A DNA stretch of 36,333 nucleotides, from assembly GCA_017513325.1 (NCBI GenBank), contig JAFXGC010000096.1, positions 1 to 36,333 on the forward strand. The letters run 5' to 3'. A model generated the notes under the pieces. It saw only the letters and a list, made by a program, of their open reading frames with translations. It was not told the origin of the DNA and searched no databases. The DNA comes from Clostridia bacterium (GTDB lineage: Bacteria; Bacillota; Clostridia; Oscillospirales; CAG-272). Position 1 is the first letter of the stretch. Each line of letters begins with the position of its first letter. This document shows positions 1,034 through 36,328 of the stretch, one piece after another. Both the position numbers and the translations under genes were made by a program.

Positions 1034-2989
1034 TTATCTGATTCTTTCTCCAAGACCTGTTTCTGGATCAAGGAATACAACGCGGATTGTTTCCTCACCG
1101 CTTGCAAGGATCATACCGTTGGATTCGATTCCGCAAAGCGTTGCGGGGCGAAGGTTACAAACGAGAATGATTTTCTTTCCAATAAGGGCTTCAGGTTCAT
1201 AGTATTTAGCAATACCTGAAACGACCTGGCGTTTTTCATAGCCGAGGTCAACTTCAAGCTTCAGAAGCTTCTTAGCCTTCTTGATTTTTTCGCATGCAAC
1301 GATCTGAGCGCTTCTGAGTTCAACGCCCATAAAGTCCTCAATACCAATAAGAGCGCATCCTTCGGGCTTTTCAGCAGCCTTAGCAGCAACTTCTGCCGCT
1401 TTCTGCTTTGCTTCCATTTCAGCGTTAAGCTGTTCAAGAAGCTTTGCTTCATCGATTCTTGAGAAGAGCATTGCAGCTTCGCCAAGTTCCATGCCGGATT
1501 CAAGCGCTCCGAATGTTTCGATTGAAGCATAGTCGTTCTTGTCTGTTGCGATCTGAGCAAAAATGGATTCGCATGTAGCAGGGATTGCAGGTGTGAGAAG
1601 AACGGCAGCGATTCTGATTGTTTCAAGCAGATTGTAAATAACGGTACCAAGGCGGGCTTTGTTTGCCTCGTCCTTTGCAAGAACCCAGGGAGTTGTTTCG
1701 TCGATATACTTGTTAGCGCGGCGAAGCATTGTATAAACGGCGTCGATTGCATCTGCAATGTGGTAGTTGTCCATATTTGTCTTAAAGCTGTTTATGACCT
1801 TTGTAATTGCTTCTTTGAGCTCGCAGTCAGTACCTTCGTCGCCTGCAGGAGCAGGAATAACGCCGCCAAAGTATTTCTTTGTCATAGCGTGTGTACGGGA
1901 AACAAGGTTACCGAGGTTGTTTGCCAGGTCGTTGTTATAACGCGTAATAACAGATTCATATGTGATAGAACCGTCTGTGGCGTAGGGCATTTCGGAAAGT
2001 GCGTAGTGACGAACGCCGTCAACTCCGAAGTGCTTAGCCATTTCATCAGCATAAATAACGTTTCCTCTGGACTTGCTCATTTTGTCCTGACCGAAGTTGA
2101 ACCAGGGGTGACCAAACACCTTTTTAGGAAGAGGTTCGCCAAGCGCCATAAGGATGATGGGCCAGTAGATAGTGTGGAAACGAAGAATGTCCTTACCGAT
2201 GATATGAACGTCAGCAGGCCAGTATTTTTTATAGTTTTCGGGCTGCTCAGCGTGGTCGGGGTCAAAACCGAGAGATGTGATGTAGTTTGAAAGCGCATCG
2301 ATCCAAACGTAAATAACATGACCGTCGTCAAAGCTTACAGGCACGCCCCATTTGAAAGAAGAACGGGAAACGCAAAGGTCCTGAAGACCGCCTTCGCACT
2401 TAAGGAAGTTGTTAACCATTTCCTTCTTGCGTGATTCGGGTTCGATAAATTCGGGGTTGTTTTCAATGTGCTCAAGGAGCTTGTCTGCATACTTGCTCAT
2501 CTTGAAGAAATAAGCTTCTTCCTTAGCTCTTTCAACAGGTCTGCCGCAGTCAGGACATTTGCCTTCAGTTGCTTGTGTATCTGTGAAGAAGGATTCACAG
2601 GGAGTGCAGTACCAACCCTCGTATGAGCTCTTATAAATGTCGCCTTTGTCGTAGAGCTTCTTGAATATATTCTTTACTGCAGTTTCGTGATAGTCGTCTG
2701 TTGTGCGGATGAACTTATCGTAGCTTGTATTCATAAGGTCCCAAACGCCTTTGATCTCGCCGGCAATGTTATCAACATATTCCTTGGGAGAAATGCCTGC
2801 GTCTGCGGCCTTGTTTTCAATCTTTTGGCCGTGCTCGTCTGTACCTGTCAAAAAGAACACGTCATAGCCGCGCTGTCTCTTGTAGCGCGCGATGCAGTCT
2901 GTCATAATGACCTCATAGGTATTACCGAAATGAGGCTTCTGAGAAGCATAGGCGATAGCCGTTGTTATATAAAACTTTTCTTTTTCCAT
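1034..2989 (-). CDS. metG: Methionine--tRNA ligase with C-terminal tRNA-binding domain
   Basis: FYITTAIAY, HFGN (HIGH-like), GTDEHGQK, CTPC/CPDC zinc knuckle, YVWIDAL, KMSKS. Start set at the ATG at 2989 behind GAGGTG. Confidence 0.97.
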   Translation of the reverse strand: MEKEKFYITTAIAYASQKPHFGNTYEVIMTDCIARYKRQRGYDVFFLTGTDEHGQKIENKAADAGISPKEYVDNIAGEIKGVWDLMNTSYDKFIRTTDDYHETAVKNIFKKLYDKGDIYKSSYEGWYCTPCESFFTDTQATEGKCPDCGRPVERAKEEAYFFKMSKYADKLLEHIENNPEFIEPESRKKEMVNNFLKCEGGLQDLCVSRSSFKWGVPVSFDDGHVIYVWIDALSNYITSLGFDPDHAEQPENYKKYWPADVHIIGKDILRFHTIYWPIILMALGEPLPKKVFGHPWFNFGQDKMSKSRGNVIYADEMAKHFGVDGVRHYALSEMPYATDGSITYESVITRYNNDLANNLGNLVSRTHAMTKKYFGGVIPAPAGDEGTDCELKEAITKVINSFKTNMDNYHIADAIDAVYTMLRRANKYIDETTPWVLAKDEANKARLGTVIYNLLETIRIAAVLLTPAIPATCESIFAQIATDKNDYASIETFGALESGMELGEAAMLFSRIDEAKLLEQLNAEMEAKQKAAEVAAKAAEKPEGCALIGIEDFMGVELRSAQIVACEKIKKAKKLLKLEVDLGYEKRQVVSGIAKYYEPEALIGKKIILVCNLRPATLCGIESNGMILASGEETIRVVFLDPETGLGERIR

Positions 2990-28720: not shown

Positions 28721-29050
28721 TTAAGCATCATATTTACACCCATTCATATCCCACAAAAACTTATCTAAATCAACTATCCCGTCATCGGAAACCTCAACCC
28801 CTTCGTTGCGAAGAAGCTGAATTTGCATATTTTCGCCGCCGAAAGCAAAAGCAGGAGAAACTTTGCCCAACTTGTTTACAACTCTGTGGCAGGGAATAAC
28901 GTAGGGTTCTGGATTAACGTGGAGAGCATAACCTACCACTCTTGAAAGTCTTTTGTTTCCACAGAGAAAGGCTATCTGTCCGTATGTAGCAACTTTGCCT
29001 TTGGGAATTTGTTTGACATATTTGTAAATAAGCTCATATGTGTTCATCAT
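28721..29050 (-). CDS. MGMT-family methylated-DNA--protein-cysteine methyltransferase (single domain)
   Basis: IPKGKVATYGQIA, RVVGYAL, IPCHRVV active-site motif. Confidence 0.9.
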   Translation of the reverse strand: MMNTYELIYKYVKQIPKGKVATYGQIAFLCGNKRLSRVVGYALHVNPEPYVIPCHRVVNKLGKVSPAFAFGGENMQIQLLRNEGVEVSDDGIVDLDKFLWDMNGCKYDA

Positions 29051-30171
29051 TCACTTATATTAATGCTGACCCCGTTGACAGTAACTTCGTCTTCTGCTCT
29101 GATCATTATGTACTTTGTTCCGTCAATGACCTCTGTTTTGATAAGGTCAGGTCTTTCGGGGTTAACCTTAATAACAACATCGGGAGTTTTAACTTCAAAC
29201 TGCTTTGTGTTAATAATGTTTTTTGGAGGAACTTCAGCGCCCTGTCCGAAACTTTTGTCAAACTGCTCGTCAAATGCCGAAATCTTTTCTTCAGCTATAC
29301 CGCAGTCAGTAAGAACATTTTTTACAGTCGCCTTGGAAATAAGAAGAGGTTCGCGCACCTTTGCCGCCTTGTGTTCGTCTACCATAGTGCAGATCTTTTC
29401 GTGAACAGCCTGAACAACCTCCATGTTGCATTCATTTGCAACGGAGTCGCTGAGAACAGTTTCAAATGTTTCCTTTTGAACTGATGCAGGCATAGGCGGC
29501 TCGCTTTTAAAAATCTTTTCTACGAATGCGTCCTGGCTGTCGGAAGTGTTCTTTGTATAGAGAAGGGCGCCGTATATATTAGCAGCTCTGTCATCAAAAG
29601 CAGGGAACATAAATCCCAGCTCAGGGTTTGAAATAACTGAATTAGCAGCAACGGAATGGAATTGATCTCCATAGTAACTGAGTGCCGGCTTTGTCAGTTT
29701 TATGGGGCATATGGAGCAAAGAAAATATGAGAACACTGTCGTTGAGTCTTCATCCTTTGAGCCATCACCACTGTAGCTGAAAACATCGTATTTATCGCTT
29801 GCAAGAAGAATAAGATAACTGCCTTCGATCTGAACCGTTTCTATAATATTTTTATAAAGAGTATCAACCGCCTCATCGTTTTCAAGTGAACTGGAACGAA
29901 GCTCTGAGAGGAGTTTGTGTTCATCTCCGGAAACTACCTGATGTGTTGAAAACTCAATATCTATAAGATTCTTTCCGTGGGTTCCGGAAAGGGTCTTTTT
30001 TATTATTGGAAGAAGTTCTTCAGTTTCTATCTCATTGAGCATAGCCAGAGAAGAATTGAAGGTTGAAAGAATCTCTCTCTGTTCTGTGACATAACAGCCG
30101 CGTATTCTTTGGATACTGGTTTTGTCAGGTGTTATTCTGCGGCGAATTTCGCCTATTTCTTTTTCATTCAT
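29047..30171 (-). CDS. DUF4317-family protein
   Basis: Recognised pattern KKTLSG...NL.D.EF, YLILL...D.YDV, CSICP, GFMFPAFDDR, C-terminal VTVNGV; minus-strand promoter-like TTGTAA...TGATAAAAT upstream. Confidence 0.8.
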   Translation of the reverse strand: MNEKEIGEIRRRITPDKTSIQRIRGCYVTEQREILSTFNSSLAMLNEIETEELLPIIKKTLSGTHGKNLIDIEFSTHQVVSGDEHKLLSELRSSSLENDEAVDTLYKNIIETVQIEGSYLILLASDKYDVFSYSGDGSKDEDSTTVFSYFLCSICPIKLTKPALSYYGDQFHSVAANSVISNPELGFMFPAFDDRAANIYGALLYTKNTSDSQDAFVEKIFKSEPPMPASVQKETFETVLSDSVANECNMEVVQAVHEKICTMVDEHKAAKVREPLLISKATVKNVLTDCGIAEEKISAFDEQFDKSFGQGAEVPPKNIINTKQFEVKTPDVVIKVNPERPDLIKTEVIDGTKYIMIRAEDEVTVNGVSINISE

Positions 30172-30356
30172 AAGTGTGCCTCCGGGTATTTTTGGACCTA
30201 TATTTTATCATTTTTTTATCATATTTACAAGTGATTTTTAAAGAATGGTGCAGATTTGCACCACTGAACTTAATTGGGGAGAAACAGTTTGGACCGGCGG
30301 CTATAATTAGCACAGACTTTGCAAAGTTTAAAAAATAAAGCAGAAAGGCACGGTTT

Positions 30357-30905
30357 ATGAAAGAAAACGAAACATTTGCAAAAGAAACGGTAAATGATGA
30401 AACTCCCATTGAAAATCTTTTGCATGAGCTTTCCGAGGAACTTGACTGTAAGAGCAGTACTCCCGAGGAACTCAGTCGTGCGATGAAGAAAAGAAAGTTA
30501 AAAACAGTTCTGAAAAAGAGAGCGGAAGAAAATTTAATACAGAAAAGATACAGGTCATATCTTTCAGAGATAGATGCTCTCAGAAGTAAGTATTCAGATT
30601 TCGAGATTGAGAATGAACTTGAAAATCCTGTTTTTGCAAAACTTATCAGATGTGGATTCGGAATGGAAGCTGCATATAACTTTGTTCATCACGACGAAAT
30701 CATTGAAAAAGTTAAGCTGGAGGCTGAACAGACAGGTTATGAAAACGCTGTTGCGCTTCTGCGCTCCGGCAATCTCCGTCCCGAAGAAAACGGAACGAGA
30801 GACCAAAGCGGAATATCAGAAAAGAAAAATGTTGCTTCTCTTACGGGAGGCGGCATAAGAGATATTCTTCGCAAAGTTGAAAAAGGAGCAAAAGTAAAAT
30901 TCTGA
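30357..30905 (+). CDS. Putative phage capsid scaffolding protein
   Basis: Charged helical protein directly upstream of the major capsid gene; C-terminal RPEENG...LT...I.R.V.KG.KV.F resembles scaffold tails seen before N4-gp56-type capsids. Confidence 0.65.
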   Translation: MKENETFAKETVNDETPIENLLHELSEELDCKSSTPEELSRAMKKRKLKTVLKKRAEENLIQKRYRSYLSEIDALRSKYSDFEIENELENPVFAKLIRCGFGMEAAYNFVHHDEIIEKVKLEAEQTGYENAVALLRSGNLRPEENGTRDQSGISEKKNVASLTGGGIRDILRKVEKGAKVKF

Positions 30906-30922
30906 AAAGGAAAGGAAAAATT

Positions 30923-32269
30923 ATGGAAAGAAATATTGTAACTGATCTTCAGATCTTTGCAGCAGGAGATGTTGTAAACGGCACAGAGGCATATGTTAAT
31001 GCCAACGAAGCAAACGCTGATGCGTATGCAGAGGGTAACGCAGGTCTCTCTGCTGAGATGAAAACATTCTATGATAAAACACTTATTGAACTGGCAAGCC
31101 CCAATCTTGTTTTTGATCAGTTTGCTCAGAAGCGTCCTATTCCCAGAAACGGCGGCAAGTCTATTGAATTCCGTCGTTTCAACAGCCTTCCTAAGGCGCT
31201 GAAGCCTATCACAGAAGGCGTAACCCCTACCGGAAGCAAGCTTACAGTAACACCTGTAAATGCTACAGTAGACCAGTATGGTGACTATGTTGAGCTTACA
31301 GATATGCTTGAGCTTACAAGCGTAGATCCTGTAGTGGTTGAAGCAACTAGACAGCTTGCTGATCAGGCAGGAAGAACAATTGATACAGTTGTCCGTAATC
31401 AGATCATGGGTGGTACAAACGTAAACTATTGTCCCGCAGTTGATGAAAACGGAAATGAAACTGAGATTACCAGCAGATCGCAGATCAACGGTAATTGTAA
31501 GCTTCGCGTTCGTGACGTATTCAAGGCGGCTGCACAGCTCAGAGCAATGAATGCACCTACAATTGACGGTTCTTACGTTGCTGTAATTCATCCCTACGTG
31601 GCATTTGATCTTATGCAGGATGCAGAAGGTCAGTGGGTTGATATCCAGAAGTATGCAAAGCCTGAAAACGTTCTTAACGGTGAGATAGGAACACTTGGAG
31701 GTGTTCGCTTCGTTCAGTCTTCCGAAGCTAAAATCTTTTATGGCGCGGATCTTTGCGCTGATGCAAGAAATCTCACAGTTTCTGCATACACAGCTGAAGC
31801 GACAGACTCAAATGTCAGCGCAGGCGAAACAACTGCGTACAGAGTAACTGTAAACGAAAATGTAACTATTGATATTCTTGGCAGAAAGGTTTTCTATAAG
31901 GGTAAGAACGGCGACGTAACAGCCACAGTTGCAGGTGTGAACACAGGCTCTAAGTATATCTATCTTGATCATGGTGAAGATATCACATATGCTTCAGGTG
32001 ATACACTTTGTCCCGGAGAAGGCGCGGGAGATGGCAGTGCTGTTTTTGCAACACTTTTCATTGGTGCAAATGCTTACGGAACAACTGATATTGCAGGCGG
32101 TGGTATTGAGCATATTGTTAAGCAGAAGGGTTATGGTAACGATCCCCTTAACCAGCGTTCTTCTGTAGGCTGGAAGGCTGCAAATGTTGCCTGCCGTCTT
32201 GTTGAAGAGTATATGCTGAGAGTGGAAAGCTCTTCTTCTTTTGCTGCTTCTGTTATGGAGGCAAACTGA
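30923..32269 (+). CDS. N4-gp56-family phage major capsid protein
   Basis: LSAEMKTFYDKTLI, FDQFAQKRPIP, GKSIEFRRF, EGVTP, QYGDY, HPYVAFDL, GEIG..GGVRFV, DPLNQRSSVGWK; strong AAAGGAAAGGA RBS. Confidence 0.92.
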   Translation: MERNIVTDLQIFAAGDVVNGTEAYVNANEANADAYAEGNAGLSAEMKTFYDKTLIELASPNLVFDQFAQKRPIPRNGGKSIEFRRFNSLPKALKPITEGVTPTGSKLTVTPVNATVDQYGDYVELTDMLELTSVDPVVVEATRQLADQAGRTIDTVVRNQIMGGTNVNYCPAVDENGNETEITSRSQINGNCKLRVRDVFKAAAQLRAMNAPTIDGSYVAVIHPYVAFDLMQDAEGQWVDIQKYAKPENVLNGEIGTLGGVRFVQSSEAKIFYGADLCADARNLTVSAYTAEATDSNVSAGETTAYRVTVNENVTIDILGRKVFYKGKNGDVTATVAGVNTGSKYIYLDHGEDITYASGDTLCPGEGAGDGSAVFATLFIGANAYGTTDIAGGGIEHIVKQKGYGNDPLNQRSSVGWKAANVACRLVEEYMLRVESSSSFAASVMEAN

Positions 32270-32270
32270 T

Positions 32271-32468
32271 ATGGGGAAGATGAGAGATGTCTTTATTCCC
32301 AGAAAGAATAAGGCGGACACAGAACGCTATGTAGCTGTCAATGGCGAAAATATGCTTGTTCATACCGGAAAAATGATCTCTGTACCCGTAAGATTTGCAG
32401 AGGTAATTGAGGAAAGCCAGCGTTGCGATACTTTGGCTGAAAAGTTTATTGAGGCAAATTCAAACTAA
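32271..32468 (+). CDS. Small phage virion-associated hypothetical protein
   Basis: 65 aa, GGAGG RBS inside the capsid gene end; YVAVNG....I/V..G..V.VP...AEVI pattern typical of the gene following this capsid family. Confidence 0.7.
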   Translation: MGKMRDVFIPRKNKADTERYVAVNGENMLVHTGKMISVPVRFAEVIEESQRCDTLAEKFIEANSN

Positions 32469-32479
32469 AAAGAGGGAAA

Positions 32480-32503
32480 TGCCTGCGGCAAAAGCCGCAG
32501 GCA
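32480..32503 (+). other. Strong GC stem-loop between the head genes and the neck/tail genes
   Basis: TGCCTGCGGC-AAAA-GCCGCAGGCA, no U-tract, immediately before an AAGGAGG RBS. Confidence 0.75.
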
Positions 32504-32524
32504 GAATCCTCAGAAGGAGGAATT

Positions 32525-32887
32525 ATGAAAGTCAGTGAAGCAATCACTCTTGCTGATAAGTATACAGGTTCTACTGTTGAAAGCGAGCTAAAATACAGAT
32601 GGCTTCAGCAGATTGAGGATATTATTTACAATGAGGTCATATTGACACATAAAGAACCATTTTCCAAACCTGATCCAGTGCTTCAAAGAGACAGAGAATT
32701 GATATGTCCTGAACCATACAGTGAACTATATATCCATTACATCAATGCTCAGAATGATCTTTTGCACAGAGACACCCGTAGTTTTGAAAACAGTGCTTCA
32801 GCTTTTGCTAGTGCCTTCGCATCATATACGGATTGGTATAACAGAACTCATATGCCTGATTCTAAGATTGAAAGGATAATTATATGA
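32525..32887 (+). CDS. Putative head-tail adaptor / head-completion protein
   Basis: 120-aa helical protein (K.RWL..IE, L..PEPY.ELY..Y, WYNRTHMP); position after the capsid genes. Function is inferred. Confidence 0.55.
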   Translation: MKVSEAITLADKYTGSTVESELKYRWLQQIEDIIYNEVILTHKEPFSKPDPVLQRDRELICPEPYSELYIHYINAQNDLLHRDTRSFENSASAFASAFASYTDWYNRTHMPDSKIERIII

Positions 32888-34641
32888 GAATACCATATCA
32901 GAAGAGAATTCTACAGAATAAGAAGAGCATCGCCGGTTTCAGAGGCCTTGACAGAAGAGTAGGAATGGGAGCAAACTCTTTTTATAATATGACTAATATG
33001 AGTGGCAAAGAGCCGAACTGTATTTCAACCAGGAATAAAAGAGGAAAACTGGATCTTAATGCTACAAAAATAAATTCCTTTATTTCTACAGACGTTAAAA
33101 TTGACGGTGTTATCAGAGAAAACGTTTTTATCACATTGGGTGGCGACAGACTCAAAGCTTACTATTATGAAAATAATATTCTTAAAACAAAAATTCTTAT
33201 GAGCACGGCGGATTTTACAAGTAATGAAAACTGTATGATAGCTTCCGGTGGTTATTTGTATTTCTTTCCTGATAACAAGTATGTAAACCTTATGAATCTT
33301 GGAGATAAAGGTAATTTGGGAGCAAAAGTTGATCTGCCTTATGGTGCAAACGATGAGTTTTTCTTTGAAACTGAGTTTATTTCTACTGATGAAAAGGGTA
33401 TTGACCAAGTGAATGATTCAGGATATGTAAAGATTGTGTGTAAGAAATATAAAAACGATACCTCACAGAAAGGTGAGTATGTTTCAAATTTCAACTACAC
33501 ATATGAGTTCAATGAAGACGATTTCATAGAGATACATGGAACTGTTTTTGACGGGCTTTATAAAATAGCATATATACCGGAAACGGATGATTATCTGGTG
33601 GTGAAAGGTTATCTCGACTCGGATTTTTCACAAAACGATAGTTTGGTCACAATTTCACGAAACATACCTGAAATGGACTATGTTACGGCAGCAGGAAACC
33701 GTTTGTGGGGATGCAGATATGGAATCAATGAAAAAGGGCAGCCTGTAAATGAAATTTATGCTTGCAGATTGGGCGATGCGAAAAACTGGTATAGCTTTGA
33801 GGGCATCTCAACTGATTCATATTCGGTTTCGGTTGGTGTTGATGGAGTTTTTACAGGAGCAATAACCTATGAAGGAGATCCTTTCTTCTTCAAGGAAGAT
33901 TCAGTGCTGCGGATATATGGTTCTCGCCCATCGGACTTTAAAGTTATCACAAACAACATAAGAGGTATAGAAAACGGAAGCAGCAAAAGTTTGGTGATCG
34001 TTGATGATACTCTTTATTATAAAACCTATAACGGAATCGTTGCATATAATGGCGGAATGCCCTATAACATTGATGAAGCTCTTGGAAGTGAGATATATCG
34101 AAATGCCGCGGCAGGGTGCCGCTGCGGAAACTATTATGTTTCAATGGAGAATGAGTGTGGAGAATACGAGCTTTTTGTATACGATACTTCGGAAAAAGAG
34201 TGGTATCGCGAAGATAATATGAAGGTCACTGAGTTTTGTCGAAGTGGTAATGAACTGTATATGCTTGTAGACAGCGATGATGGTTCAAAGATATATTCAG
34301 TGGGTGGTGAAGGTGAAGTTGATAATGAAAAAACAATATTCTGGAGTCTTGAGAGCCCTGATATTGATTATTACCTTGCCGGTAAAAAAGCAACCACCAA
34401 ACTTGAAATCAAGCTGAAGTTATCTGAAGGTTCATATTTTAATGCGGAAATAAGCTATGACGGTGATAGAAATTGGCATAAGATAGCTGCTGAAAACGGA
34501 CCGCTCAGATGTATTTCGGTTGTGCTAAGGCCACGGCGTTGCGATAGTTTTCGTCTCAGATTCAGCGGTCACGGAGAGGTAAGCTTTGTTTCTATGACAA
34601 GATACACAACTGAAAGCGGCGATAAACCGGGAGGAAGATGA
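32884..34641 (+). CDS. Putative podovirus-type tail nozzle / DNA-stabilisation protein (P22 gp10 / T7 gp12-like)
   Basis: 585 aa, beta-rich; FRGLD, NMTNM, NRLWGC, EIYACRLGD..NW, FFKED, LFVYD....W..ED, PRRCD.FRLR.SG; ATGA-coupled to the adaptor. Confidence 0.65.
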   Translation: MRIPYQKRILQNKKSIAGFRGLDRRVGMGANSFYNMTNMSGKEPNCISTRNKRGKLDLNATKINSFISTDVKIDGVIRENVFITLGGDRLKAYYYENNILKTKILMSTADFTSNENCMIASGGYLYFFPDNKYVNLMNLGDKGNLGAKVDLPYGANDEFFFETEFISTDEKGIDQVNDSGYVKIVCKKYKNDTSQKGEYVSNFNYTYEFNEDDFIEIHGTVFDGLYKIAYIPETDDYLVVKGYLDSDFSQNDSLVTISRNIPEMDYVTAAGNRLWGCRYGINEKGQPVNEIYACRLGDAKNWYSFEGISTDSYSVSVGVDGVFTGAITYEGDPFFFKEDSVLRIYGSRPSDFKVITNNIRGIENGSSKSLVIVDDTLYYKTYNGIVAYNGGMPYNIDEALGSEIYRNAAAGCRCGNYYVSMENECGEYELFVYDTSEKEWYREDNMKVTEFCRSGNELYMLVDSDDGSKIYSVGGEGEVDNEKTIFWSLESPDIDYYLAGKKATTKLEIKLKLSEGSYFNAEISYDGDRNWHKIAAENGPLRCISVVLRPRRCDSFRLRFSGHGEVSFVSMTRYTTESGDKPGGR

Positions 34642-34832
34642 TGAAAATAAAAATAAGCAATCCTCCCGTGCAGAGTGGCGATAAATATGATATGGAAAAG
34701 CTTATGGCGTGGTTATATCAGTTGACTTTGGCTGTGAATATGGGTTTTTCCAATATCAGTTACGACAATCTTAGTGATGATCTTGTGAGGGATCTGGAAA
34801 GGATGATGGAAAATGGCAAAGAAAACGAATAA
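34638..34832 (+). CDS. Small phage-related hypothetical protein
   Basis: GGAGG RBS, ATGA overlap; L.AWLYQL...VN....NI...NL pattern. Confidence 0.6.
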   Translation: MMKIKISNPPVQSGDKYDMEKLMAWLYQLTLAVNMGFSNISYDNLSDDLVRDLERMMENGKENE

Positions 34833-35520
34833 AGATGATAATATGCTTAATTCAGATCCAATTGAATCTGACGTATCATTAAAAGCTCAGGAAGCATTAA
34901 ATGAGCAAAAATACAGGATACTTATGGATGCAGGGCATATTAACGATTCTTTAGTATCTGATGACGGCATAGCAAGTGATAGCAATTTAAAAAAAGATGT
35001 TTCAGATTCTTATGCTGACTGGAAAAGCAAAGAAAAACCTAGCTATGACGATGTATACAGAGACGATATAGAAAAAACGCGCAAAGAACTTGAAACAAGA
35101 GAATTCTCATATGATGTAAACGAGGATGAAGCATACAGGCGATACCGTGACAGTGTAAAGAACAGTGCAGAACTGGCACTTGCCGATGCCATGGGTTTGG
35201 CATCTTCGCTGACAGGAGGGTATTCAAATTCTTATGCACAACTCGCAGGTCAGGCTGCTTTCTCTGATACCATAAAAACCGCTGATGAAAAAGTTTTCGA
35301 TTTTTATAAAGAAGCATACAACAGATATTCAGAAGAAACCGATAATATTGAGGACCGATTGGAGATGCTTCTGGATATGGATGATACGGAGTGGGACAGA
35401 TATATTGATATGCTTGATGAATACAATGATGAAGGCGAAAGACTTTTTGATCAGCTAACTAAAATGTCAGATGAAGAATTTGATCGGTTTTATTCAATGT
35501 ATAAGCTTTCGGTAAAATAA
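34813..35520 (+). CDS. Acidic helical phage-related protein, putative internal virion/ejection protein
   Basis: FSYD.N.D.AY..Y, D.MG.AS.LTGGY.NSYAQ.AGQ.A motif; lies after the nozzle-like gene, where podoviruses encode ejection proteins. Confidence 0.55.
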   Translation: MAKKTNKDDNMLNSDPIESDVSLKAQEALNEQKYRILMDAGHINDSLVSDDGIASDSNLKKDVSDSYADWKSKEKPSYDDVYRDDIEKTRKELETREFSYDVNEDEAYRRYRDSVKNSAELALADAMGLASSLTGGYSNSYAQLAGQAAFSDTIKTADEKVFDFYKEAYNRYSEETDNIEDRLEMLLDMDDTEWDRYIDMLDEYNDEGERLFDQLTKMSDEEFDRFYSMYKLSVK

Positions 35521-35544
35521 AAAACGCCCAATCGGGCGTTTTTT
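35519..35544. terminator. Bidirectional terminator closing the virion module
   Basis: AAAAAACGCCC-AATC-GGGCGTTTTTT. Confidence 0.85.
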
Positions 35545-36328
35545 ATTTGTTTATTGTGATAGAATCAATAACCTTCATAGTAATATCTTCTCTTTCAAGC
35601 TCATCCTCTATGCAAAGGTGAACCACGTAATCAGGAGATATGCGAATCAGCACAGAATAATAGCCTTCGATTCCGCGGGGTTCCCTTTGCAGAAAATAAG
35701 AATAATTATTTCCATTTGAGGTCGTGCCGGTGAAGAACTCACTCATATATAATTCTCCTCCGGCAAGTCCCTTGGAATTTGCTTCATCTAAAGTAACTCC
35801 TGTCTGAACCAACCTCATAATACTCATGGCGCTTGTATATCCTGAATAATCTGTTTTATCAAAATATTTAAAATATCTGCCTTCTTTTCCGCTCCAATGC
35901 TCCGGAATGTCAATGCTTATAGTAATGGGATCAAAATATGTAAGTGCCTCTTGATCACGGTAATCTACATTTTCATCATATGTAAAGCAGAAGTCAAATT
36001 TGTAGCTTTCGGTTGTATAAGAGATGTTATTGAAATCAATAACCTTAACGGGAGTCACGTTTACAATATCTACCTCTCCTGCTTCTTTTCTGAGGTAAAG
36101 CGTATACTCTGTGCCTGTTTTATCCTTAATAGTTGTTCTGTTGTTTTCCAGAAATTTCTCGGTGGCGTCAATGTTTTTGAATTTGATCTTTAAGGAATAG
36201 TCGTATGAATCCTTGGCTAAAGCTTCAAGACTTGCACTTTTCAATAGATTAATAACTTCTTCGCTGTTTTCATAAGAATTCATACTGTTCTGCCATTGTT
36301 CAGTCATAGGGAGTTGCATTTTTTTCAT
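35543..36328 (-). CDS. Hypothetical protein (may extend beyond the window end)
   Basis: 261-aa ORF; the frame is still open at the window edge; no family recognised. Confidence 0.65.
   Translation of the reverse strand: MKKMQLPMTEQWQNSMNSYENSEEVINLLKSASLEALAKDSYDYSLKIKFKNIDATEKFLENNRTTIKDKTGTEYTLYLRKEAGEVDIVNVTPVKVIDFNNISYTTESYKFDFCFTYDENVDYRDQEALTYFDPITISIDIPEHWSGKEGRYFKYFDKTDYSGYTSAMSIMRLVQTGVTLDEANSKGLAGGELYMSEFFTGTTSNGNNYSYFLQREPRGIEGYYSVLIRISPDYVVHLCIEDELEREDITMKVIDSITINK

Follow-up and report, generated by a model that had tools for sequence, protein, structure and literature searches.

A seven-gene head and tail operon of a Candidatus Avispirillum genome and its three partner operons: a probable host-maintained particle system of podovirus type

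The stretch of Clostridia DNA analysed here (36,333 nucleotides, hereafter the window) carries, at positions 30357-35520 of its plus strand, seven genes (g1 to g7) for proteins of a podovirus-like particle. The window is the entire contig C80 of a metagenome-assembled genome (MAG; G000, 199 contigs, 1.93 Mb, completeness 78%, contamination 3.2%), which we compared with other genomes of the genus Candidatus Avispirillum (labelled G003 to G047). We believe that the seven genes are the operon for the head and tail axis of a domesticated short-tailed phage particle that would be encoded by at least four dispersed chromosomal operons, namely (A) regulators on contig C61, (B) packaging genes on C142, (C) the window block and (D) fibre and lysis genes on C140. 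The genes of these operons are identifiable and conserved in the genus; they lie at fixed positions between host genes, are under purifying selection and are preceded by a common promoter-like motif. A particle system that the host maintains from several loci is very probably what they form, and we favour, with some reserve, the fuller reading of a domesticated podovirus-like gene transfer agent (GTA) of the type of FpGTA, the element described in Faecalibacterium prausnitzii.

The seven-gene operon and its three partners

Listing of the open reading frames (ORFs) and inspection of the sequence bore out the layout that a sequence-only reading of the window had described. The seven ORFs are intact, co-oriented and coupled, with ATGA overlaps at 32884 and 34638 and a 1-nt gap at 32270, and a purine-rich Shine-Dalgarno-like stretch precedes all seven gene starts. 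The divergent host gene DUF4317 (29047-30171, minus strand; Pfam E 2e-130) lies 185 bp from g1, and an intrinsic-terminator-like hairpin at 35515-35548 of the plus strand (15-pair stem, 4-nt loop, T-run) closes the operon. PHROG families were matched by five of the seven proteins (none by g6 and g7), and Pfam gave no usable match for g1, g3, g4, g5, g6 and g7. The product of g2 (30923-32269, 448 aa; like all seven genes on the plus strand) is a major capsid protein (MCP) of the N4-gp56/Phage_capsid_4 type: it matches phrog_1357 at 2e-82 and PF25209 (Phage_capsid_4) at 3e-10, above the family cut-off, and the protein-atlas clusters carry the name N4-gp56 family. Directly before it, g1 (30357-30905, 182 aa; phrog_13908, 4e-23) encodes a probable scaffolding protein; the position is that of the scaffold gene in phage Page, and homologues occupy it in all related clusters. 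The AlphaFold2 (AF2) model of the g5 product (32884-34641, 585 aa; pLDDT 89, pTM 0.83) matched in Foldseek, at PDB ranks 1-32 among the matches listed, chains of podovirus tail or portal-tail complexes throughout, including P22 gp10, T7 gp12, SU10 and GP4 (E 3e-16 to 3e-9; TM up to 0.59, query-normalised). Judged by this modelled fold, g5 is a podovirus tail nozzle (hub) of the beta-propeller-based P22 gp10/T7 gp12 kind, and we dropped its PHROG label of internal virion protein for this assignment. The product of g4 (32525-32887, 120 aa; phrog_12105, 1e-25) is probably the head-to-tail adaptor. The ten best PDB matches of its model (pLDDT 91) were all to the Sf6 gp7 tail adaptor, with P22 gp4 lower; they are weak (E 0.3-0.9, TM 0.44-0.48) and suggestive only.

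The remaining genes are a small conserved virion-module protein, g3 (32271-32468, 65 aa; phrog_15239, 1.6e-7), with 63-86% identity across the genus; a small protein of the module, g6 (34638-34832, 64 aa), without a family match and with homologues in most, not all, genus loci; and a virion-associated protein, g7 (34813-35520, 235 aa), for which neither Pfam nor PHROG gave a match. Homologues of g7 measure 240-500 aa and occupy the same position in related clusters, and those of other species have an N-terminal LysM domain (1e-15 in the G046 homologue). The capsid protein contains an insertion of about 90 aa (residues ~276-365, window 31748-32017) that is present in the G000 clade, G021, G003 and G046, and absent in G004, G005, G007, G011, G015, G020 and G024 and in the phage-like copies of the family found in genus genomes; it may be a surface or decoration domain gained inside the domesticated lineage.

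Translated ORFs of related phages, run against the own genome, pointed to contig C142 (6.6 kb), where an 83-aa remnant of TerS, TerL (PF04466/PF03237), a P22-like portal (PF16510) and a cysteine protease of the Prp type (PF04327) are encoded on one strand, with NifS-like and MarR genes on one side and a Cys-rich 285-aa gene on the other. The supposition that portal and terminase are encoded elsewhere has thus been borne out, and the alternative of a DNA-free capsid, also considered in the sequence-only reading, is disfavoured because terminase and portal are conserved alongside the capsid. The tail and lysis locus was reached through a weak XhlA-like match (E 0.001). It is a 4.6-kb operon on C140 for a BppU_N baseplate/fibre protein, a BspA-type LRR protein (a candidate for receptor binding), an XhlA-like protein, an r1t-type holin and an Amidase_2 endolysin, it is adjoined by a divergent host MatE gene, and operons like it are also present in G013, G017, G019, G004 and G021. 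Search with the promoter-like motif described below led to C61, with genes for an HTH_3 protein, a double zinc-ribbon protein and a 71-aa Cys-rich protein ('CPFY..ITCEG'), a homologue of which is encoded immediately upstream of TerS in the Yeguia hominis cluster. The four sites add up to 19 genes in about 14 kb, and beside none of them did we see integrase or replication genes.

The Cys-rich 285-aa gene (C142:305-1162, L030, minus strand) has no family match. It shows 67-96% identity across the genus, with dN/dS of 0.03-0.06, and may either belong to the host or have been added to the operon in this genus; since it is absent from all 80 related loci examined (see below), we treated it as a host gene. 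Other searches for partners were less productive: when all ORFs of 71 related loci were compared with the own genome by tblastn, mostly host paralogues (ABC transporters, repeat proteins) came up, and a 168-aa match on C70 looked like a host gene. The bin also contains a second, unrelated TerL/portal pair with other virion-like genes (C84:7288-11490 and C179:2086-7756; 28-36% identity to the query phages), probably another prophage or a phage contig.

Two features of the packaging operon deserve separate mention. In the G000 clade TerS measures 83 aa, and its alignment with the 145-aa TerS of G046 covers only residues 69-144 of the latter. The G046 protein in turn aligns along its length with a TerS of phage type, in which the N-terminal 74 residues match TerS families. 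From this partial alignment the DNA-recognition end seems to have been lost in the G000 clade, as reported for RcGTA and FpGTA. The other feature is the protease. Prp cuts ribosomal protein L27 and the capsid and scaffold proteins of staphylococcal phage 80alpha. The capsid encoded in the window has a conserved DLQ(I/L)FAAG motif at its N-terminus and scaffolds of related clusters begin with LSLQFFAS, DLQFFGEG or DLQLFSDG, motifs that we take to resemble the Prp cleavage site; the G000 scaffold has a weak version (ETFAKE). If this resemblance is real, the Prp protease of C142 would process products of the window locus.

Conservation, fixed positions and descent in the genus

Searches of other genus genomes gave capsid matches in 23 of 24 and portal matches in 30 of 31, none of them with an internal stop, and the BppU N-terminus and the C61-type Cys-rich protein each had matches in 27 of 31; where a genus genome gave no match, its completeness was 61-86%. 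Beyond the genus the capsid has a patchy distribution: among single genomes from other families 2 of 16 have it, and among 300 genomes of the order 36 do, with 3 of these among the 17 from other genera within the family. The positions are also kept. At the portal locus the NifS-like neighbour is present in 10 of 11 loci, and the Cys-rich 285-aa gene follows Prp in all 11. At the capsid locus the DUF4317 flank is kept in the four closest species, so that the module recurs next to DUF4317 in relatives, one of the checks proposed with the sequence-only reading; the downstream mrnC/transglutaminase flank is common to more distant species too, and the upstream flank varies between clades.

The contig runs out 813 nt past the block, within a minus-strand gene, and consequently the claim that the block stands alone could not be judged from the window by itself. 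It was settled by four sister species, in which the order is DUF4317, g1-g7, a gene for a lipoprotein of about 590 aa, host mrnC and a 1081-aa transglutaminase-domain gene, with host genes beyond g1-g7. The contig end and the 199-contig assembly might suggest that a mobile phage was split by errors of assembly or binning, or that the genes belong to a satellite of the capsid-forming PICI (phage-inducible chromosomal island) type, and it is in line with such an explanation that contiguous phage-like copies of the family exist in genus genomes (G009:C23, G016:C10) and that a different TerL/portal pair lies on C84. However, near-complete genomes (95-97% complete) have the capsid and portal operons on separate long contigs, with host genes on both sides: on C6 (111 kb) and C3 (216 kb) of G046, which consists of 10 contigs, and at separate loci in C2 (157 kb) and C1 (227 kb) of G021. 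In G047 the two operons are about 15 kb apart and divergent. Moreover, the same flanks recur in many species, no integrase or replication gene adjoins the loci, and short contigs from two public runs of one study span the DUF4317/g1 junction independently with 0 differences. We therefore give an assembly artefact or satellite hardly any chance. One of the two bridging runs may be the source sample. A satellite, capsid-forming or not, would be a single mobile island with integrase and replication module that depends on a helper phage; no such genes were seen at any locus, and the loci are fixed and unlinked. A functional temperate prophage would be one contiguous element with integrase, att sites and modules for lysogeny and replication; what we see is short operons, each with host genes on both sides in 11-13 species.

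The C-terminal 261 codons of the lipoprotein gene form the end of the window (35543-36328, minus strand; transglutaminase-core domain), where the contig cuts it. The gene (also L019:14107-15882) is extremely variable among the sister species (31-78% identity), in which its neighbours are conserved. We had considered it as a receptor-binding gene and ruled this out, as it has a transglutaminase core, lies on the opposite strand and is absent from related clusters.

Pairwise dN/dS (NG86) was 0.02-0.05 for TerL, 0.03-0.04 for the portal, 0.04-0.08 for the MCP, 0.04-0.23 for g3-g7 and 0.31-0.43 for the scaffold, as compared with 0.02-0.10 for host neighbours; dS was saturated (>1 or not computable) in many pairs, which makes the ratios rough and weighs against leaning on them. 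They are well below 1, as the sequence-only reading had called for. TerL is 68-89% identical where the NifS-like host neighbour is 47-77% identical. Trees of TerL, portal, MCP, nozzle, NifS-like protein and Cys-rich 285-aa protein (11 genomes) gave the same four clades and agreed with the flanking host genes at the supported nodes, the deeper nodes being unresolved; the congruence proposed as a check was thus found at the level of clades. BppU genes of distant species share 25-37% identity over the first ~140 aa only, and the fibre and receptor-binding genes are very variable beyond.

It could be argued that these are scattered and functionless remnants of an old defective prophage in slow decay. 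The genes are indeed dispersed, without integrase, replication or lysogeny genes beside the loci; the genomes are small and have undergone rearrangement, clades differ in what lies upstream of the capsid locus, and g7 was not found in G021, which also counts against our main reading. Against decay stand the absence of internal stops from the 23 capsid and 30 portal matches in different species, dN/dS of 0.02-0.13 for most genes at a dS near or beyond saturation, the better conservation of TerL than of its host neighbour NifS, the retention of the promoter-like motif at all four operons across the genus, and the full particle set of packaging, head, tail axis, fibre and lysis genes. We regard decay as very unlikely. 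What was found is what is expected of a GTA: phage structural and packaging genes kept vertically under purifying selection, and no sign of self-propagation, there being four unlinked host-flanked loci with no integrase or replication gene seen alongside. The proposal that the block is host-retained and GTA-like, split over several loci, has in this way gained two loci, for capsid and portal, that are genus-wide, intact and fixed, and two further ones that have a promoter-like motif in common with them.

A common promoter-like motif and the origin of the split

Fifty nucleotides upstream of g1 lies the promoter-like motif GGGGAGA-N19-TATAAT (30276-30307, plus strand), and the same motif with the same spacing is found upstream of TerS on C142. 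In the genus, the pattern [AG]GGGAG[AC]-N~19-TAnnnT stands before the scaffold gene in 13 of 13 capsid loci and before TerS in 12 of 12 portal loci, a few of them with the AGGGAGA or GGGGAGC variant. The motif also precedes the regulator operon in 10 of 10 loci and the BppU tail gene in G000 and five of six further tail loci (6/7 in total). In G047 the tail and lysis genes are split further, with the motif before a BppU-like gene on one contig and before XhlA-holin by rimP-nusA on another; no holin is present at that site in G000. Genome-wide, the strict pattern has nine matches in G000, versus three for the reversed control and a shuffle mean of 4.6, and three of the nine are operons of this system; the others (C30, C59, C137, C175, C176 and C185) were judged from their downstream genes to be chance or unrelated. 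The pattern was also commoner than its reversed control in five of five relatives. As the motif is common to the four operons, these are probably switched on together, and from the sequences we infer co-regulation through it, the small regulator operon on C61 being the obvious candidate for the source of its reader. Matches were also seen upstream of grpE-like genes in G009 and G046.

The promoter-like motif of the window is framed by palindromes. About 14 nt upstream lies GGTGCAGATTTGCACC (30247-30262, plus strand), of the TGCA-N6-TGCA type, and TGCA..TGCA palindromes were seen by eye, without statistics, at the same place in capsid loci of other species; this palindrome may be an operator. 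Just past the -10-like box lies the palindrome or hairpin GACTTTGCAAAGTT (30315-30328, plus strand), whose equivalents in other species are palindromic too but differ in sequence (e.g. GACTCCGCGAAGTC, GACTTCATGAGGTC and GGTTTTCCGGAAACC), and which could be an operator or a hairpin of the 5' untranslated region. In C59 (~1100-1231, minus strand) and in G013:C15:41200-42305 (L134, L139) we also observed repeated short cassettes that follow a conserved GGGGAGAAA...TATAAT and a second promoter-like stretch and encode a protein with a CxxC...HxxCxC pattern plus small downstream ORFs; they could be a polymorphic-toxin or immunity-like array.

Similarity searches in species-representative genomes yielded at least 487 stretches encoding a relative of the capsid, of which we examined the best 80. 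Among these, the 21 most similar loci (67-94% capsid identity) have no TerL or portal nearby, and 54 of the 59 less similar ones have TerL and/or portal directly upstream of scaffold and capsid; three of the other five have less than 900 nt of upstream sequence. An Acutalibacteraceae locus is a compact, host-flanked cluster of about 12 kb that ends in two amidase-like genes (only the second above the Pfam Amidase_3 cut-off), a holin and an XhlA-like gene. In the sister group the cluster is contiguous over 14.2 kb, from TerS to a GH25-like endolysin (named from its own sequence and its G021 homologue), with identical host flanks in four species, and the motif stands before TerS and again before the scaffold gene. 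Since both genes of this contiguous cluster are preceded by the motif, the split fell at an operon boundary, and the Avispirillum layout is best read, from these sequences, as a contiguous and presumably already host-fixed cluster taken apart at its operon boundaries. A MecA-like gene flanks the capsid operon in G046 and G009 (L043:13327-13881, L025:10859-11413) and also the sister-group cluster (L088:3288-3917), with 33-34% identity; this one gene is a hint that the capsid operon may have stayed at the ancestral site and the packaging operon moved. Beside the split system, some genus genomes hold contiguous phage-like copies (G009:C23 (L028), G016:C10, G020:C9, G014:C20, G041:C89 and G044:C83), 42-60% identical in the capsid and 46-51% in the portal, from which it appears that live relatives still infect or reside in the same hosts.

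Comparison with gene transfer agents and significance

GTAs of the RcGTA type are encoded at dispersed loci, expressed as a regulon and provided with lysis genes at a separate site. The system described here resembles RcGTA and the alphaproteobacterial GTAs in being phage-derived, vertically inherited and dispersed, in its putative single regulon and in its separate lysis genes. It differs in that those particles are siphovirus-like, with an HK97-type head module without sequence relation, and belong to a different phylum, and no counterpart of the regulators GafA and CtrA was identified in it. These GTAs are also treated in the Introduction of the paper on FpGTA (PMC12946183).

The sequence-only reading knew of no described system of this architecture in Clostridia, which no longer holds. 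FpGTA is a podovirus-like, host-encoded GTA-like element of two operons in gut Clostridia, near-ubiquitous in its genus (Borodovich et al., Nat Commun 2026, PMC12946183). Its operon I encodes a TerS without DNA-binding domain, TerL, portal, scaffold, capsid and conserved hypothetical proteins, and operon II, 125 kb away, encodes baseplate, fibre, receptor-binding protein (RBP), holin and endolysin; its capsids of ~40 nm were shown experimentally to contain ~8.5-9 kb of host DNA (PMC12946183). The same source reports GTA-like packaging in other Oscillospirales and in Christensenellaceae, for which the genes were not found, and gives RCH50849.1 and RCH50851.1 as the FpGTA capsid and portal. The gene content is the same as ours, including a TerS that is truncated in the G000 clade. 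The podovirus module from TerS without DNA-binding domain to capsid is present here over two loci, and C140 corresponds to the separate operon for baseplate, fibre, RBP, holin and endolysin. In contrast to FpGTA, the content of operon I is here split into packaging and head/tail-axis operons at unlinked sites, there is an additional small regulator operon, giving at least four loci, and the hosts are another genus, from animal guts. The operons here also have a common promoter-like motif, and the words promoter and nozzle are absent from PMC12946183; and particles with packaged DNA have been shown for FpGTA, whereas ours is known from its genes. No Faecalibacterium record was among the best 80 of the at least 487 capsid-encoding stretches, and the protein atlas gave no link from the g2 capsid to Faecalibacterium. 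Our literature search met the term FpGTA in PMC12946183 only and found no paper linking Avispirillum to a GTA. We would file the system, by this analogy, as a variant of the FpGTA type whose multi-locus form is new.

Among phages, the nearest cultured relative is the Bacillus megaterium podophage Page (Pagevirus; capsid 37% identical) and the nearest uncultured ones are the human-faecal phage scaffolds MT835662 and MT835607 (46-48%). They are also the nearest phage relatives of the nozzle and share the order scaffold, capsid, small genes, tail protein. They differ in being phage genomes of 22-40 kb with terminase and portal directly upstream, and Page carries replication, recombination, sigma factor and lysis genes. 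Closer in organisation are contiguous clusters of ~12-14 kb in Oscillospirales (L058, L088, L100, L105 and L083), which are host-flanked, have the GGGGAGA motif before TerS and before the scaffold gene, and show the homologous order TerS-TerL-portal-(Prp)-scaffold-capsid-adaptor-nozzle-g7-like-...-holin-endolysin. The difference is that each occupies a single locus; their GTA nature is equally putative, and our literature searches found no published description of them. It is a tentative reading, to which we would not commit ourselves, that the Avispirillum system is a four-operon GTA regulon, the first in which packaging, head/tail-axis, fibre/lysis and regulator cassettes are all unlinked, tied together by a dedicated GGGGAGA-N19-TATAAT promoter inherited from a large, undescribed family of contiguous ~14-kb GTA clusters that are fixed at conserved sites of the chromosome in several Oscillospirales lineages.

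If the system works as a GTA, the regulon would be induced in a subpopulation of cells, scaffold and portal would direct procapsid assembly, and the Prp-like protease would trim the N-termini of capsid and scaffold. The terminase, with its truncated small subunit, would then fill the heads with random host DNA by a headful mechanism, adaptor, nozzle and fibres would join, holin and endolysin would lyse the cell and release the particles, and these would deliver the DNA to related cells. Because the genes lie far apart, no single small headful is predicted to carry the system, which would pass on by vertical inheritance only. A domesticated particle might also serve another purpose, such as killing in the manner of PBSX, by particles that lysis of a subpopulation sets free and that package DNA but do not deliver it, or some task in stationary phase or sporulation. 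The evidence for domestication applies to such a particle equally, the variability of fibre and receptor-binding genes fits any receptor-directed function, and PBSX, named as such a case in the Discussion of PMC12946183, is a precedent. Nevertheless, known killing particles have contractile or flexible tails and do not need a head for killing, terminase, portal and the channel-forming nozzle fold are all conserved, which fits packaging and ejection of DNA, and the nearest described system, FpGTA, is read as GTA-like. A different use thus seems to us improbable, if worth keeping in mind.

Several points weigh against reading the operons as a GTA regulon. The motif is short, its enrichment across the genome is only about 2-fold, its -10-like part deviates at the tail locus of G000 (TAAACT), the regulator locus of the G000 clade has AGGGAGA, and the search pattern used found no motif upstream of the BppU gene of G046. 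The likeness to FpGTA is one of gene content, and the adaptor assignment of g4 is without significance in Foldseek. Purifying selection fits an active phage as well as a domesticated element, and PBSX packages host DNA without transferring it. All the evidence comes from MAGs, and mis-binning of C142, C140 and C61 is possible in principle, set against which the same loci are present in 95-97%-complete relatives; among the public runs searched, no RNA run containing the window stretch was found.

It was only in 2026 that podovirus-like GTAs came to be recognised in gut Clostridia, and then in one genus (PMC12946183). The locus described here, its three partners and their contiguous relatives are candidate genes for GTA-like activity in further lineages, and form a natural series from one locus to four that illustrates how a domesticated virus comes apart at its operon boundaries. 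The conserved promoter-like motif could guide searches for more genes of the regulon and for the regulator itself. If the reading as a four-operon regulon is true, it would be the first regulatory handle on GTAs of Firmicutes and would tell which genes underlie the GTA-like packaging that gut viromes show for taxa without identified genes; and if the particles transfer DNA, genes would flow through animal gut communities by a route that ordinary screens for prophages and plasmids do not see.

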